Assembly (NCBI GenBank): GCA_965205505.1
Contig: CBDBHB010000009.1
Coordinates: 160,001 to 224,000, forward strand
Direction: 5' to 3'
Length of the DNA stretch: 64,000 nucleotides
Source: Acidobacteriota bacterium
Lineage (GTDB): Bacteria > Acidobacteriota > UBA890 > WLXD01
Part shown: piece after piece, positions 57,794 through 64,000 of the stretch
Layout: each line of letters starts with the position of its first letter
Position numbering within the stretch: position 1 is the first letter of the stretch
Position numbers and translations under genes: made by a program
The notes under the pieces: generated by a model
Told to the model about the DNA's origin: nothing
Databases searched by the model: none
Seen by the model: only the letters and a program-made list of their open reading frames with translations

Positions 57794-60484
57794 TCAGGAG
57801 CGGAGCACGCCCACCGGGCTGACACTGGTCGCTCGACGCGCAGGGATCCACGCCGCCAGCAAAGCGATCGCAAGGCCGCCGACGCCGACGCCGATGAACA
57901 CTGCGGGATCGGTAGCAGAGACGCCGTACAGCAGCGAGCTCATCAGTCGCGTGGCGGCGAAGGCGGCGGCGAGCCCGATGGCGGCTCCGAGAGCCGCAAA
58001 CATCAGTCCCTGGGCCAGCACCATGCGCTGGATCTCTTTCTCGCGGGCGCCCAGGGCCATGCGAATGCCGATCTCTCGGCGGCGCTGCCCAACGGAGTAC
58101 GACAGCACGCCGTAGGTGCCGATGGCCGCCAGCAGCCCGGCCATGGAGCCAAAAGCGACGAGCAGCACCATTGTGAACCGAGTATCGGCCATGCCGACGC
58201 CGATGGCGCGTTCCAGAGTGCGCACGTTGAAGGCGACGAGCAGTGGGTCGATCTCGGCTATCTGGGTACGGATCGCGGTCATCAGGCCCGGTACATCGGC
58301 GGAGGTGCGCACCAGCTGGAACATGCTCCAGCGACGCTCGGCGAACTGTGTGTGGCTGAAGTACACCTTGGGGGTGGGCGATGACGAGCGCTGTCGTAGC
58401 AGCGTGTCGCCGACGATGCCGATGATCTCGCCGTCGTGACCGCCGGATCTGATCGTCTCGCCAATCGGGTTCGCTCCAGGTCCCTAGCCGTCCGCAACCG
58501 CCGCCTCGTTGAGATACACCGCCCACGGTGCGTCCAGCGTATCGTCCGGACCGAAGCGACGTCCCGCCAGCAGTGGGATTCCCACCAGGTCGAGATAGTC
58601 GCCCGAGATGACGCGGATGTTGGCGAGGTGGTAGTCCCAGCCCGAGTCGCTGTTCGGGTCGGCCACCCCGTACCCCCAAATGTTGTAGGTGCCAGTGACT
58701 GGCAGCCATTGAACCGCGCCGACCGCATCGACGCCGGGGATGCTAGCGACACGCCGTCGCAGCTCCTGGTAGAAGCCCTCACGTTCTTGCGCCGTGTCGT
58801 ATCGGGCCTGCGGCAGCCGTAGCTCGAACGTCGTAACGCCGCTCGGATGCACGCCGGTCTCACGAGTCTGCAGCAGCCAAAAGCTGCGCATCATCAGGCC
58901 CGCCCCGATCAGGAGCACGAGCGCCAACGCGACCTCGCTCACCACCAACGCGGACCGCATGCGGTTGGTGCCCCGGCTGCCGCTGTTGCCGCGGTCGTCC
59001 TCGCGCAACGCCGTCTCGAGGTCTTTCCCGGCGCTGCGAAAGGCGGGGACCAGGCCGAAGACGGCGGTTGTCAACAGTGAAGTGGTGAGCGCGAACGCCA
59101 GCACTCGCATGTCGAACGACATGTCGTTGATGAGCGTGAGGGACTGCGGCGCGAGGCGCAGCAAAGCGCGCGTCATCATCGCCGCCAACGCAACGCCCAG
59201 CACGCCACCGATGAGCGCCAATACGAGGCTCTCGGTAAGCAGCTGCCGAACCAGGCGCAGTCGCCCCGACCCGAGGGCGGCGCGGATGGCGAGCTCCTTG
59301 CGCCGCGTCATGCCGCGGCCGATCAGCAGGTTGGCGACGTTGACGCAGCCGATCAGCAAGACCAGCGCGGTGGAGCCGAGCAGCACCCAGAGCATCGTGT
59401 TGGCGTTGCCCACCGAGTCCTCTTGCAGCGGTTGGATCCATGCATAGCGTCCGTCGTTCGACTCCGGATACTGGCGCGCCAGCTCTTCGTCGAAGGCGGT
59501 GAGCTGCTGTTGCGCCTCGGCCAGCGTCACTCCGGGAGCGAGTCGACCAACGACCGTCATGTAGTGGTTGTCGCGCACGTTGAAGCCGCCGGGCGTCATG
59601 TCGTGTGGCACCCACACGTCGACGTCGTCGCCCACCAGATCGACGAAGGTAGCGGGCATGACGCCGACGATCTCCCAAGCCTCACCATCGAGCGTGACCG
59701 TGCGGCCGACGATCTCAGGATCACGTTCGAAGAGGTTCCGCCACAGTCGTGCCGACAGGATCACCACTCGGGAGTTGCCGTCCTTCTCGGAGCGCTCGAA
59801 CACCCGCCCGGTCATCGGACGCAAGCTGTAGACGTCGAAATAGTCCGATGTCAAGTAAAGTGCAGAGATTCGTTGCGGTGCGCCCTCGCCGGTGAGATCA
59901 AAGCCCATGGGGCCGTAGTTCCCCATCCCCGCCAGCGACTGGAACGTGCTCAGCTGATCCCGGTAATCGGCGTAGTCGAGGGGCGACACAACGTCGAAGT
60001 TTGTCGGGGCGCTCTCGAAGCCACCGCTGCGCGAGTAGTACTGATACACCCGCACCAGTCGGTCGGGCTCCGGGTAATCGAGCGGGCTCAGCAGCACTCC
60101 GTTAACTACCGAGAAGATGGCGGTGTTGGCGCCGATCGCCAGCGTCAGCGTGGCGATTACTACGAAGGCGAACAGCGGCTCGGCCAGCAGGCCGCGCACC
60201 GCAAACCGAATATCCGCTACCAGGTTGCCGATCACGTTGTGCTCACGACGGGGATCTCTCGGTAGACCGCCGCCCAGGCCGGCGGCCGGAAGCTTGCAGG
60301 CGAAGGCGATCGTCTGACGCCAGTACCACAACCAGGCTCGCAGCCTGCCGTGGGTATGTCGCAGGTGCTGGAATTCTTCTTGCAGATCGCCGAGCACGTC
60401 GCGTCTCGACGGTGGCGGCAGCAGTCAGGTGACGAGCGCCGTCGCCAGGTCCGGCGTCTTCCCGTCGCGTGCACGCCGGCTCAC
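57794..60484 (-). pseudogene. ADOP-family permease with two in-frame stops
   Basis: One continuous frame from a GTG overlapping the padR stop; TGA at 60425-60427 and TAG at 58484-58486; typical ADOP motifs. Confidence 0.9.
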
Positions 60485-60862: not shown

Positions 60863-62233
60863 ATGCAAGTCGGAGCGTGTCGCGGGATCGGCGATTGCAT
60901 GGACGCTATTCGGCGGGCGAGAGTGTTCTTCGATACGATCGGCCGCATGATGCAAACGGCCGACCCAGCGAAGCTCGAGCGCCTCCCCCCGAGGCTGGTG
61001 CCGGGCCTGTACCTGGCGGGCGCCCACATCGCGCTGATCACCGCGTTCTCGATGCTCGCCTGGCGGCCGGGCATCCTGGCGGGCTTTTTCTATCACCCCC
61101 AGGCGATGACGCTGGTTCATCTGGTCACGCTGGGTTGGATCACCGGCTCGATTCTGGGATGGATCTACATGGTCGGGCCGATTGCGCTGCGCACACCGAT
61201 CGCCGCTCGGCGCACAGACATCGTGGCGTGCGCTCTTTTCCTGACCGGTGTGGCTGGGTTGGTGAGCCACTTCTGGCTGAATCGCTACAACGGCATGCTG
61301 TGGTCGGCGGGCATGTTGCTGCTCAGCATCGCTTTTGTCGCTTGGCGTGTGCTGCGCGCCGTGCTGCCGGGGACGATGCCGCGGCCGATCAAGCTCCACA
61401 TCGTATTGGCGTTTGTGAACATGCTGGTGGCTGGAATCTGGGGAGCGCTCACCGGCCTCGAGAAGCTCCAAGTCGATGCGGTGCCGGGCCATATTCTCGC
61501 AAACGTGTTCGCGCACGCCCATCTCGCGGCGCTCGGCTTTGCAACGATGATGGTGATCGGGCTCGCCTATCGGCTTCTGCCGATGATGTTGCCCTCGGCA
61601 GTGCCGCCGGAGCGGGGCCTCTACGCCAGTGCCTGCCTGTTGGAGATCGGTGTGCTGGGGTTGTTCGCCGGCCTGATAACCGCGAGCCGATGGACCGGTG
61701 CGTTCGCTGTGCTGAGTATTCTGGGGATCGTCGCGTTCGCCTCCAGGGTGGCGTGGATGATCCGATCTCCGCGCCCTGCCCCCAAGGCGCTGGTCAAACC
61801 CGACTATGGGGTGCTGCATGCGATGCAGGCGATCGGCTACCTGGCGCTCAGCGCGACGCTCGGCATGGCGCTGTTGTACATGCAGCCATCGGAGACCGAG
61901 CTGCGGCTGATGCCGGTTTATGGCTTGCTGGGTCTCGTAGGCTTCCTGTCGCAGATTGTCATCGGCGTGGCAACGCGAATCCTGCCGCTGGTCACCTGGC
62001 TCCAGCAGTTCGTGCGGTACGGACAGAAACCAGACATTCCCTCGCAGTACGCCATGATGGGGCGGCGCGTTCAGGCCGCCAGCTTCACCCTATGGACGCT
62101 CGGCGTCCCGGTGCTCGCCGTGGGCCTCATAACAGGGAACGAGATGGCCATCTCTGTCGGGGCCGCGGCGTTGGCGGCGGCCACGCTGCTGGTTGGCATG
62201 AACGTTGCGCGGGTACTACGGTACGCCTTCTGA
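60863..62233 (+). CDS. Polytopic membrane protein with intramembrane His residues (heme-copper oxidase subunit I/NnrS-like)
   Basis: About 12 TM segments; VHLVTLGW, FAHAHLAALGF; start may be 60899. Confidence 0.65.
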   Translation: MQVGACRGIGDCMDAIRRARVFFDTIGRMMQTADPAKLERLPPRLVPGLYLAGAHIALITAFSMLAWRPGILAGFFYHPQAMTLVHLVTLGWITGSILGWIYMVGPIALRTPIAARRTDIVACALFLTGVAGLVSHFWLNRYNGMLWSAGMLLLSIAFVAWRVLRAVLPGTMPRPIKLHIVLAFVNMLVAGIWGALTGLEKLQVDAVPGHILANVFAHAHLAALGFATMMVIGLAYRLLPMMLPSAVPPERGLYASACLLEIGVLGLFAGLITASRWTGAFAVLSILGIVAFASRVAWMIRSPRPAPKALVKPDYGVLHAMQAIGYLALSATLGMALLYMQPSETELRLMPVYGLLGLVGFLSQIVIGVATRILPLVTWLQQFVRYGQKPDIPSQYAMMGRRVQAASFTLWTLGVPVLAVGLITGNEMAISVGAAALAAATLLVGMNVARVLRYAF

Positions 62234-62239
62234 CCGCCA

Positions 62240-62995
62240 CTAGTAGCTCCAACTCCTCAGGAGCTGCTGAAACGCCAGCATTGCCATGAGCGACAACGTG
62301 AGCGACACGGCCACCACCTGGGCGGATGCTTGCTCTAGCGCGTCAGGCACTAGCTCGGTGAACACCAGCCACAGCATTGCTCCGGCAGCGAAGCCGAGCC
62401 CGACCGGCAAGAATGGGCGAAAGGTCAGCACGAACAAGAAGGCGGGAACGGCCATGAGCGGCTGAGGGAGGCTCGAGAACACACTCCAGCCGGCAGCGCT
62501 CCACGGTTTGACGCCGCGCGGTACGAGCACGAGGCTGATGGCGAGCCCTTCGGGGATGTTGTGAACGGCGATTGCCGCAGAGATGAACACGCCGAGTGCG
62601 TCGCTGCCGCCGTAGGCGACGCCGACGCTTACGCCCTCGGCAACGGAATGAAGCGTCATCGCGCCGACTACAATCAACGCTTTGGTGGCGTCGGCACCGC
62701 GCACTTGTCCGATCTGCAGGTCGCGACCGCCCCCGCTCAGAAGCCGACGGCTCGCCGCCATGAACACCAGTCCGGCGAGAACGCCGACGAACACGCGCAT
62801 CGTGCTCAGTGGCATGCCCTCGTTGATGAGGCTATGGCTCGCCGCCACCATGAGACCGGCCGCTGCGGCGTTGGAGGCACCCAGCCAACGGCGCGCCAGC
62901 CCGGCGACGAAGAAGAACGGAATAGCCCCGAGGCCCGTTGCCAGCGCCGTGAGGAAGGCGGCGAGGAATACCGTCCACGCGTTGATCTGCAGCAT
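62240..62995 (-). CDS. ZIP-family metal transporter
   Basis: LHSVAEG, AVHNIPEGLAI, GFAAGAM. Confidence 0.93.
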   Translation of the reverse strand: MLQINAWTVFLAAFLTALATGLGAIPFFFVAGLARRWLGASNAAAAGLMVAASHSLINEGMPLSTMRVFVGVLAGLVFMAASRRLLSGGGRDLQIGQVRGADATKALIVVGAMTLHSVAEGVSVGVAYGGSDALGVFISAAIAVHNIPEGLAISLVLVPRGVKPWSAAGWSVFSSLPQPLMAVPAFLFVLTFRPFLPVGLGFAAGAMLWLVFTELVPDALEQASAQVVAVSLTLSLMAMLAFQQLLRSWSY

Positions 62996-63128: not shown

Positions 63129-64000
63129 CTACATAGCGACGGGCTCGCCGGCAGCGTCCACCATGGGTAGCCCGGCGGCCGCCCACGCGCCCATGCCGCC
63201 GGTCACGTTGCGAACGTGACGGAAGCCGTTGCGCAATAAGACGCTGCAGGCAGTGCTTGATCGAGTCCCAACGGCGCAGAGCACCGACACGCGACTGTCG
63301 ATGCTCAGCTCGAGCTCGTCGATCCGGTCGGCGAGGAACTTGAAGTTCATGTAGTGGGCACCGTCGACGTGTCCGGCGTCCCACTCCGAGGTCTCGCGCA
63401 CGTCGAGCACCTGCATCCCGCCGCCGTTGGACAGCGCCGAGGCAAGCTCGTGGACGCTCATCTGCGGCAACGTCTCCTGCGGGCGCCCGGCGCGCAGCCA
63501 GCTTCTCATGCCACCGGCCAGATGCCCCTCGACCCGAGAATCCAGCCCCAGGAAAGCCATCGCGTGGAGGGCGCGGTCCGCCGCCTCGGCGTCGTCGGTG
63601 ACCAGCAGGATCGGCACGTCGGGTGGGATCACCCAGCCGACCCGCTGTTCGAACTCGGAGCTGCTCTGCAAGATGCTCATCGCGCCCGGAACGTGCCCGC
63701 CGCCGAAAGCGGCCGCCGATCGGGTGTCAATCACGAGCCGGCTGTCCTCGGTTAGCTCGGCAAACTCGTCGGCGCCCAGGGGGCGGGCCCGGGGCGGGTC
63801 CATCGTCAGCGGCCTTCTGCCCTGGTTGATCGCGACGATGTTCTCGATGTTGGCGGGGCGCGGCGGCTGGTCGGTGTTCATGTACGCGACAAACGCGTCG
63901 CGATTCTCGAACTGCAGGGCCGCGTTGTTGCGCTTCTCATACCCGACCGTGGTGACAACCTTGCCACTCGTTACGCGTCCTCACGTCGAGCCCGCTACAT
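63129..64000 (-). CDS. MBL-fold persulfide dioxygenase-rhodanese fusion (CstB-like), runs off right edge; in-frame TGA at 63981-63983
   Basis: (H)VAGST*GRVTSGKVVTTVGYEKRNN, then a pseudo-rhodanese domain (GHVPGA) and a catalytic rhodanese domain (CAVGTRS). Confidence 0.88.
63952..63967 (-). promoter_or_regulatory. Candidate bacterial SECIS hairpin
   Basis: GTGGCA-AGGT-TGTCAC starting 13 nt after the in-frame TGA. Confidence 0.6.

Follow-up and report, generated by a model that had tools for sequence, protein, structure and literature searches.

We describe here a probable selenoenzyme gene at the end of a 64,000-nt stretch of an Acidobacteriota genome (hereafter the window, G000:C9:160001-224000, where G000 is the genome that carries it). 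Judging from its sequence, the gene product is a predicted persulfide dioxygenase (PDO)-sulfurtransferase of the CstB type, referred to below as Sec-PDO, which combines a non-heme-iron metallo-beta-lactamase (MBL) domain with an inactive and a catalytic rhodanese domain, and its TGA at codon 187 almost certainly encodes selenocysteine (Sec) at the key catalytic residue. This Sec would replace the Cys of the mobile Cys-Gly loop of CstB-type enzymes (here U187-G188) and would operate in a CstB-like cycle, a reading to which we assign a probability of roughly 0.87. Such a replacement had been proposed in a first-pass annotation of the window, and is now supported by a conserved Sec/Cys pair, a conserved hairpin downstream of the UGA, and the Sec machinery of the genome. 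The decoding of the UGA as Sec appears better supported than the Se-S-SO3 chemistry that might follow from it, the latter being drawn by analogy from CstB.

Gene structure

The gene lies on the minus strand, where the frame of the open reading frame (ORF) at 63129-63881 extends upstream as VAGST-TGA-GRVTSGKVVTTVGYEKRNN (read from 63998) up to the edge of the window, which is straddled by the codon of H181. This continuation through the TGA (63983-63981) had been noted in the first-pass annotation. Upstream of the edge the frame stays open and encodes HSHADH (residues 56-61), i.e., the HxHxDH signature anticipated for an MBL domain. With TGA read as U, the result is an intact 470-codon MBL-rhodanese-rhodanese ORF (G000:C9:223129-224541, minus strand) that starts with GTG, 5 nt after a ribosome-binding site (GGAGGAG). 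The C-terminal 289 codons and the TAG stop fall within the window (63129..64000) and the N-terminal 181 codons beyond its edge. The TGA at codon 187 (63981..63983) is the sole internal in-frame stop of the gene, which carries no other lesion.

Distribution of the UGA and Cys forms

Sec almost always substitutes for a catalytic, redox-active Cys. To compare the codon-187 column among relatives, we used six-frame searches of 40 related genomes and then of a 401-genome sample of the phylum (the tallies from the latter take in two unpublished genomes, G047 and G166, on which no other result rests). The 40 relatives yielded 10 orthologues (61-90% identity), each with exactly one internal TGA, and in 10 out of 10 this TGA was located at the codon-187 column of an otherwise intact gene with an N-terminus reading MWFES or MWLET (an extra TAG flagged in the G004 orthologue is its natural terminator). 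The larger sample added one TGA form (G321, 56% identity). Among named species-representative genomes, all 80 loci considered, which are the best 80 of 93 relatives (55-68% identity), had TGA at the column, with record titles that included Acidobacteriota/Vicinamibacterales, Gemmatimonadota/Longimicrobiales and Krumholzibacteriia as well as many Chloroflexota (Caldilineae, Ardenticatenaceae, Promineifilaceae and Leptofilum). Overall, every one of the 92 orthologous loci from genomes had TGA at the column; these loci are partly dependent (82 distinct 66-nt sequences, some named contigs apparently deriving from the same genomes as those designated here by G numbers). Across all rows for loci L016-L141, the codon was TGA in 92, TGC in 24 (one of which, L057, is an off-frame chance match to the search pattern) and TGT in six, with six fragments not covering the region. 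Cys paralogues at 34-43% identity carry TGC or TGT at the column, and two distant ones flagged with one TGA (L034 and L038) likewise have Cys there.

A metagenome scan queried with aligned Cys forms returned 80 loci, comprising 71 TGA forms, two close Cys forms (L197 and L208) and seven distant Cys forms (42-43% identity), so that within the clade the Sec form outnumbers the sulfur form (71 TGA vs. two close Cys loci). The protein databases contained 13 full-length Cys orthologues (P0003-P0015) at 52-59% identity, reading HVAGSTCGRVTSGK; like L197 and L208, these have the loop HVAGST-C-GRVTSGK (HVAGSTCGR), with TGC in place of TGA. Of the TGA forms, the same databases record no more than the C-terminal part, as fragments of 264-292 aa, among which P0080 is labelled “hypothetical protein”. 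Of the genomes in the genus, G000 and G004 have the TGA form, G002 and G003 have only a 39-40% Cys paralogue, and G001 gave no match. On one Promineifilaceae metagenome-assembled contig (L077), a TGA form (HLAGST-U-GRV) shares the plus strand of a 5.9-kb locus with a canonical CstB-like paralogue that has Cys (HGAGSACGKGLGAIP), so that some genomes have Sec and Cys forms next to each other.

The TGA is not a sequencing error. Contigs of four sequencing runs from four studies cover the stretch and show no difference at the TGA (L015 1481-1483), hence neither TGC nor TGT; the run flagged as a possible source is not among them, although near-identical records may still be the source. Strain differences were seen only at codons 162 and 271, which flank the UGA, and both are synonymous.

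The hairpin downstream of the UGA

The TGA is followed by 13 nt (63980-63968) and then by GTGGCA (63967-63962), AGGT (63961-63958) and TGTCAC (63957-63952), which together form a candidate bacterial selenocysteine insertion sequence (SECIS) hairpin (63952..63967, minus strand). Its stem comprises 6 bp, including one G-U pair, and its loop starts 19 nt after the UGA, with G at loop positions 2 and 3; the spacings and the G at loop position 2 given in the first-pass annotation thus hold. In position, size and small G-containing loop, this hairpin fits the bacterial SECIS elements described in the excerpts available from PMC1088965. It also resembles the hairpin of the formate dehydrogenase gene fdhA of the same genome, which starts 12 nt after its UGA (13 nt here) and shares the 5′ arm GUGGC and a small loop with G-U, but differs in having an 8-bp and more stable stem and a GUC loop (6 bp and AGGU in Sec-PDO).

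The stem can pair in all 82 distinct sequences, the consensus among orthologues being GUGGCA-AGGU-UG[C/U]CAC. Five of the six pairs are invariant, while the remaining one is G-U in 46 sequences, G-C in 34 and A-U in two (L073 and L081, where it is accompanied by protein changes from Gly to Asp and from Ala to Val). Codon usage points to the same stretch. For the 11 closest orthologues, 16 of 182 degenerate columns with an invariant residue were also codon-invariant, and four of these 16 are the consecutive codons 192-195. We then considered 81 non-redundant, full-length TGA genes, taken from the 89 forms that were left once pairs of at least 88% identity had been collapsed (forms shorter than 440 aa, with N, or lacking a recognisable N-terminus were dropped). 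Over 460 codon columns, and leaving Met and Trp aside, the third base was invariant only at codon 187 and at codons 192-196. The codons used in the hairpin are otherwise rare in these genes, AGT accounting for 130 of 1856 Ser codons elsewhere (7.0%) and GTT for 485 of 3048 Val codons (15.9%).

Residues encoded by the 3′ arm are confined in TGA forms to V/F/I/A and then A/V, which are compatible with UUG[C/U]CAC, whereas Cys orthologues vary freely at these positions (T/H/F/S/A directly after SGK, then I/V/A/N/S). The two close Cys forms from metagenomes (L197 and L208) read AGC GGA AAA/AAG CAT GTC, from which the stem cannot form. Close homologues thus do not present TGC or TGT without a hairpin as the general state: TGA and a conserved hairpin go together in the 92 genome loci and in 71 of the 80 metagenome loci.

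Selenocysteine machinery

All components required for Sec insertion that were sought are present in G000, namely one tRNA-SeC (detected by ARAGORN; Rfam RF01852, 68.2 bits vs. a gathering score of 47), selA (516.6 bits, two copies), selB (354.6 bits) and selD (322.8 bits), with the three proteins above their curated cut-offs. The genome also encodes a full-length FdhA (1323.5 bits) with one in-frame TGA. TGA terminates 710 of the 1373 open frames of at least 500 codons and is the commonest terminator, hence there is no global reassignment of this codon. Among the relatives, G023 has the TGA form, and selA was not found in its 69%-complete assembly.

Several further observations concern this machinery. 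The two selA copies have identical scores and lie on one contig in opposite orientation (G000:C6:10376-11734 and C6:191379-192737; L002 and L001), and could be a duplication or an assembly repeat. The selD gene is part of a 758-codon frame (G000:C1:10698-12218; L011, L232) whose N-terminal part weakly matches pyridine-nucleotide-disulfide oxidoreductases, an arrangement that fits the known “Nterm_to_SelD” fusion (TIGR03169). A second molybdopterin enzyme (G000:C9:1541902-1543956; L224) has an in-frame TGA in the context CAAT-U-HAPTVAG, followed 12 nt downstream by a hairpin, GUGGCC-GGUCU-GGUCAC, that has the GUGGC 5′ arm in common with the FdhA hairpin, and is probably another FdhA-like selenoprotein. 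An additional ARAGORN tRNA (G000:C9:617574-617648) was given a four-base anticodon (agca) and no assigned identity.

Predicted protein and catalytic cycle

The 470-codon product contains Lactamase_B (Pfam, 35.9 bits, cut-off 22.7) and two Rhodanese stretches. Its best solved relative is the beta-lactamase/rhodanese protein of Alicyclobacillus acidocaldarius (PDB 3TP9, E 1.7e-68, aligned over residues 14-460), a Cys form with HGAGSACGK at the same motif position, and a phmmer search also gave a full-length match to Staphylococcus aureus CstB (PDB 3R2U, E 2.6e-55). The TGA187 column corresponds to the Cys of HGAGSxCGK in both structures. In 3R2U, U187 aligns with chain residue 225, which is C201 after correction for a 24-residue tag offset (the same offset also places C408), and U187-G188-R189 aligns with C201-G202-K203. 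The metal-site residues (HSHADH at 56-61, H112, D137 and H181) are present and aligned with those of both structures. Further along the 3R2U alignment, C422 matches C408, R427 matches R413 and R382 matches R370. Sec-PDO thus resembles CstB in its three domains, HxHxDH motif, metal-site His and Asp, chalcogen-Gly dipeptide of the loop, rhodanese Cys and steering Arg residues, and differs in that CstB has a Cys in its loop (GSPCGKSLGA) where a UGA-encoded Sec is predicted here (GST-U-GRVTSGK).

The middle rhodanese-like domain (roughly residues 250-350, 63492..63794, minus strand; approximate bounds based on Pfam and the 3TP9/3R2U alignment) has no Cys in the loop after LLVTDD (residues 312-317), and is probably non-catalytic. 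The C-terminal, catalytic rhodanese (PF00581, residues 364-455, 63177..63452, minus strand) has the active site C422-A-V-G-T-R427, with the catalytic Cys codon at 63276-63278. No model in NCBIfam 20.0 reached its cut-off with the Sec-PDO protein. Assignment to the Blh/BpPRF-type PDO-rhodanese family (NF040641) was rejected (33.5 bits vs. an equivalog cut-off of 625), and the BpPRF structures match the PDO domain only (E about 1e-20).

The CstB mechanism was recently detailed in a 2026 preprint (PMC12934615), which does not mention selenocysteine (0 occurrences). According to this text, CstB converts two RSSH to thiosulfate in an Fe(II)- and O2-dependent reaction that proceeds via an S-sulfonated loop residue. 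The dipeptide C201-G202, carried by a mobile loop at 3.4 Å from Fe(II), acts as a mimic of glutathione. Persulfidation of C201 precedes its S-sulfonation, which needs iron and O2, and the residue then travels about 27 Å to the persulfidated C408, aided by R370 and R413, with release of thiosulfate. Replacing either Cys by Ala (C201A, C408A) abolishes activity. The role given to the loop Cys in the first-pass annotation, that of a functional sulfur-carrying residue, agrees with this description.

Since all CstB shuttle residues are conserved, with Sec at the C201 position, we infer the same cycle via Se-SH and Se-SO3. UGA187 would be decoded by Sec-tRNA(Sec) and SelB, steered by the GUGGCA-AGGU-UGUCAC hairpin 13 nt downstream. 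The U187 selenolate would then accept the sulfane sulfur of a low-molecular-weight persulfide to give enzyme-Se-S(H), the terminal sulfur of which would be oxidised by Fe(II) and O2 to an enzyme-Se-SO3(-) adduct. The loop would swing to the C-terminal rhodanese site, where attack by the C422 persulfide would release thiosulfate and regenerate selenol and thiol. By established Sec chemistry, selenium should be a better nucleophile and a better leaving group than sulfur, and should resist irreversible over-oxidation beside an O2-activating iron. It is an even bet, in our view, that the true substrate is a selenenyl persulfide tethered to the protein (Sec-Se-SH), which would be turned into a Se-sulfonate and brought by the loop to the rhodanese site; such Se-S-O intermediate chemistry was not found described in the literature searched.

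Alternative explanations

A decaying gene inactivated by a nonsense TGA might be suspected, as a stop does interrupt at least one long and seemingly conserved frame of the window (the TAG at 58484-58486, in a permease gene) and the PDO protein is known from its sequence alone. However, TGA recurs at the same column in 92 genome and 71 metagenome loci that span 55-90% protein identity, the 11 closest orthologues, checked singly, have both halves open and no other lesion, and the changes that distinguish strains on either side of the TGA are silent. Conservation therefore effectively refutes a pseudogene, which we consider next to impossible. It is also highly improbable that UGA187 is a true terminator that separates a 186-residue MBL fragment from a rhodanese starting at the ATG at 63881, possibly as a regulated pair. 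This ATG does exist, and public gene calls give only the 264-292-aa C-terminal fragments (e.g., P0016 and P0080), but the 33 codons between TGA and ATG are conserved as protein in all orthologues (GRVTSGKV.TT.GYE.R.N) and align with a structured loop and helix of CstB. The 186-residue fragment would moreover stop right past the last metal-site His, without the catalytic residue, and termination gives no reason for the frozen wobble bases immediately 3′ of the UGA.

Insertion of Cys, Trp or Gly at UGA187, through near-cognate decoding or a local recoding signal, is to us no more credible than termination. A hairpin could in principle stimulate other kinds of read-through, and covariation ties this one only weakly to a SelB-binding fold; yet a complete Sec machinery is at hand and used by FdhA in the same genome, the recoded position is that of a catalytic Cys in a classical Sec/Cys pair, the hairpin fits both the bacterial SECIS description (as available in PMC1088965) and the genome's own FdhA element, and TGA terminates most long frames. 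A selenoenzyme with chemistry other than that of CstB is unlikely too, if less so than these. It might, for instance, release sulfite as classical PDOs do, act on selenium species such as selenopersulfides or selenide, or employ Sec as a redox switch or as a ligand of the iron. In its favour, the loop signature of the clade is HVAGST-U-GRVTSGK vs. HGAGSPCGKSLGA in CstB, the identity to CstB is modest, some loci adjoin a PhsA-like Mo enzyme and YeeE/YedE-type transporters, and a recognisable sulfide:quinone oxidoreductase (SQR) was not found in G000. Nevertheless, the three-domain architecture is that of CstB, and the Cys/Sec-Gly dipeptide, the rhodanese Cys and both steering Arg are conserved, i.e., all of the shuttle residues named in the available part of PMC12934615.

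A CstB-like selenoenzyme thus remains our preferred reading, and several results have to be counted against it. As a single sequence, the 62-nt hairpin region has an unexceptional fold (z = +0.85, with 158 of 200 shuffles at least as stable), and with this fold at chance level the significance of the hairpin rests on its conservation across orthologues. RNAalifold found 0 compensatory pairs among 11 sequences, and covariation was minimal among the 82 distinct sequences, where no measure beat column shuffles (167 of 500 reached the observed score). One TGA form outside the 81-gene set (L196) has AGC, which places a C·A mismatch in the stem, and a permissive Rfam scan of the hairpin region returned only a chance-level narK RNA (13.3 bits, E 3.6). 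The co-occurrence of selA is not discriminating, as selA was found in 37 of 41 sampled relatives. Finally, neither a type-III SQR (best score of the family model 19.5 bits; no match to the L098 protein as query) nor a PF04143 (YeeE-type) transporter was found in the 96%-complete G000, and its Sec-PDO locus is without cst-operon context, the neighbour being a ZIP transporter gene.

Evolution and genomic context

For the evolutionary analysis, we built a FastTree phylogeny of 165 rows, which remained of 242 X-free sequences with a minimum length of 400 aa (149 Sec, 93 Cys) once same-state near-duplicates (at least 88% identity) had been removed; the Sec column was excluded from the alignment. 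The tree is a rapid one, and long-branch warnings accompanied it. The Sec/Cys label requires three changes on it. The smallest clade with all 89 Sec rows also includes five Cys rows, in two nested groups, and its sister is a group of nine Cys orthologues (SH-like support of 86 for the Sec node and 100 for the joint clade), so that some close Cys orthologues branch inside the Sec clade and others as its sister. The simplest reading of this topology would be a single Cys-to-Sec change followed by two reversions, along with spread across phyla.

Among the 92 genome loci, a Chloroflexota-type context was recognised in which the gene is near a PhsA-like Mo oxidoreductase (36 loci; 202 bits, below the equivalog cut-off), a DmsD/TorD/NarJ-like chaperone (31 loci), two TsuA/YeeE-like half proteins (26 loci) or a flavoprotein closest to the “type III SQR, selenoprotein subtype” (eight loci; 231.8 bits, below cut-off). 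This context fits sulfur metabolism, and none of these partners came to light in G000 (SQR and PF04143 queries). In the conserved cluster of the Chloroflexota loci L068-L123, the PhsA-like Mo enzyme is encoded upstream of Sec-PDO, and the DmsD/TorD-like chaperone and the TsuA/YeeE-like halves downstream. An upstream ORF family (“c11”) recurs in nine Acidobacteriota-type loci.

Within the window, the ZIP-family metal transporter gene (62240-62995, minus strand; Pfam Zip, 54.6 bits) is separated by 133 nt from the upstream Sec-PDO gene, an adjacency that is not kept in other lineages. A 456-aa membrane protein (60863-62233, plus strand) has only a weak COX1 match (29.6 bits, below the cut-off of 34.8). 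The ORF at 58484-60397 (minus strand), beside a PadR regulator, encodes a 637-aa permease-like protein and ends at the TAG at 58484-58486, past which its frame stays open for 229 further codons with similar G+C content at third codon positions (0.83 and 0.82). The nonsense pseudogenes mentioned in the first-pass annotation probably include this ORF, and since its stop is TAG rather than TGA, it is not a Sec candidate.

Relation to known systems and implications

The CstB-type enzyme is of a known kind, and what is new is its Sec variant. No published description of a Sec-containing PDO or MBL-fold hydrolase was found in full-text searches; supplementary tables may list candidates. Neither the main text of deep-Sep (PMC12013277) nor the Global Ocean Sampling (GOS) selenoproteome paper includes one in the parts available, and the accessible portion of the prokaryotic selenoprotein table of PMC13188914 (May 2026) has no entry for lactamase, MBL, persulfide, dioxygenase, hydrolase, glyoxalase or PF00753. 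By domain content, the nearest selenoprotein is SelTryp of trypanosomes (Kinetoplastida), which likewise joins an MBL-fold domain to two rhodanese domains; in the excerpts available (PMC1557815), it differs in being eukaryotic and of unknown function, with Sec in a C-terminal CxxU tail and a SECIS of the eukaryotic type. Other selenoproteins connected with reactive sulfur are the rhodanese-like bacterial forms 1-5 (PMC13188914, as available) and the “type III SQR, selenoprotein subtype” (NF049943), which together show that Sec has repeatedly replaced a sulfur-carrying Cys. The rhodanese-like forms have Sec in the rhodanese active site or in other motifs, whereas here the rhodanese keeps its Cys and the Sec is placed in the dioxygenase domain.

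Sec-PDO would thus add a selenoprotein family built on a non-heme-iron dioxygenase, with the Sec form widely distributed among bacteria of soil and sediment. The gene is at present split or truncated by gene callers, and annotation could rely on a simple model that combines HxAGST-U-GR with the hairpin. As Sec at the C201 position is conserved across several phyla, it would also provide independent evolutionary support for the loop residue as the substrate carrier of CstB, as proposed in the 2026 preprint. Sister forms that naturally have Sec or Cys offer a clean comparison, beside an O2-activating iron, of how nucleophilicity, leaving-group ability and resistance to self-oxidation differ. If the selenenyl-persulfide reading is true, selenium supply would affect the detoxification of sulfide and persulfide by Chloroflexota, Acidobacteriota and Gemmatimonadota of soil, sediment and wastewater.

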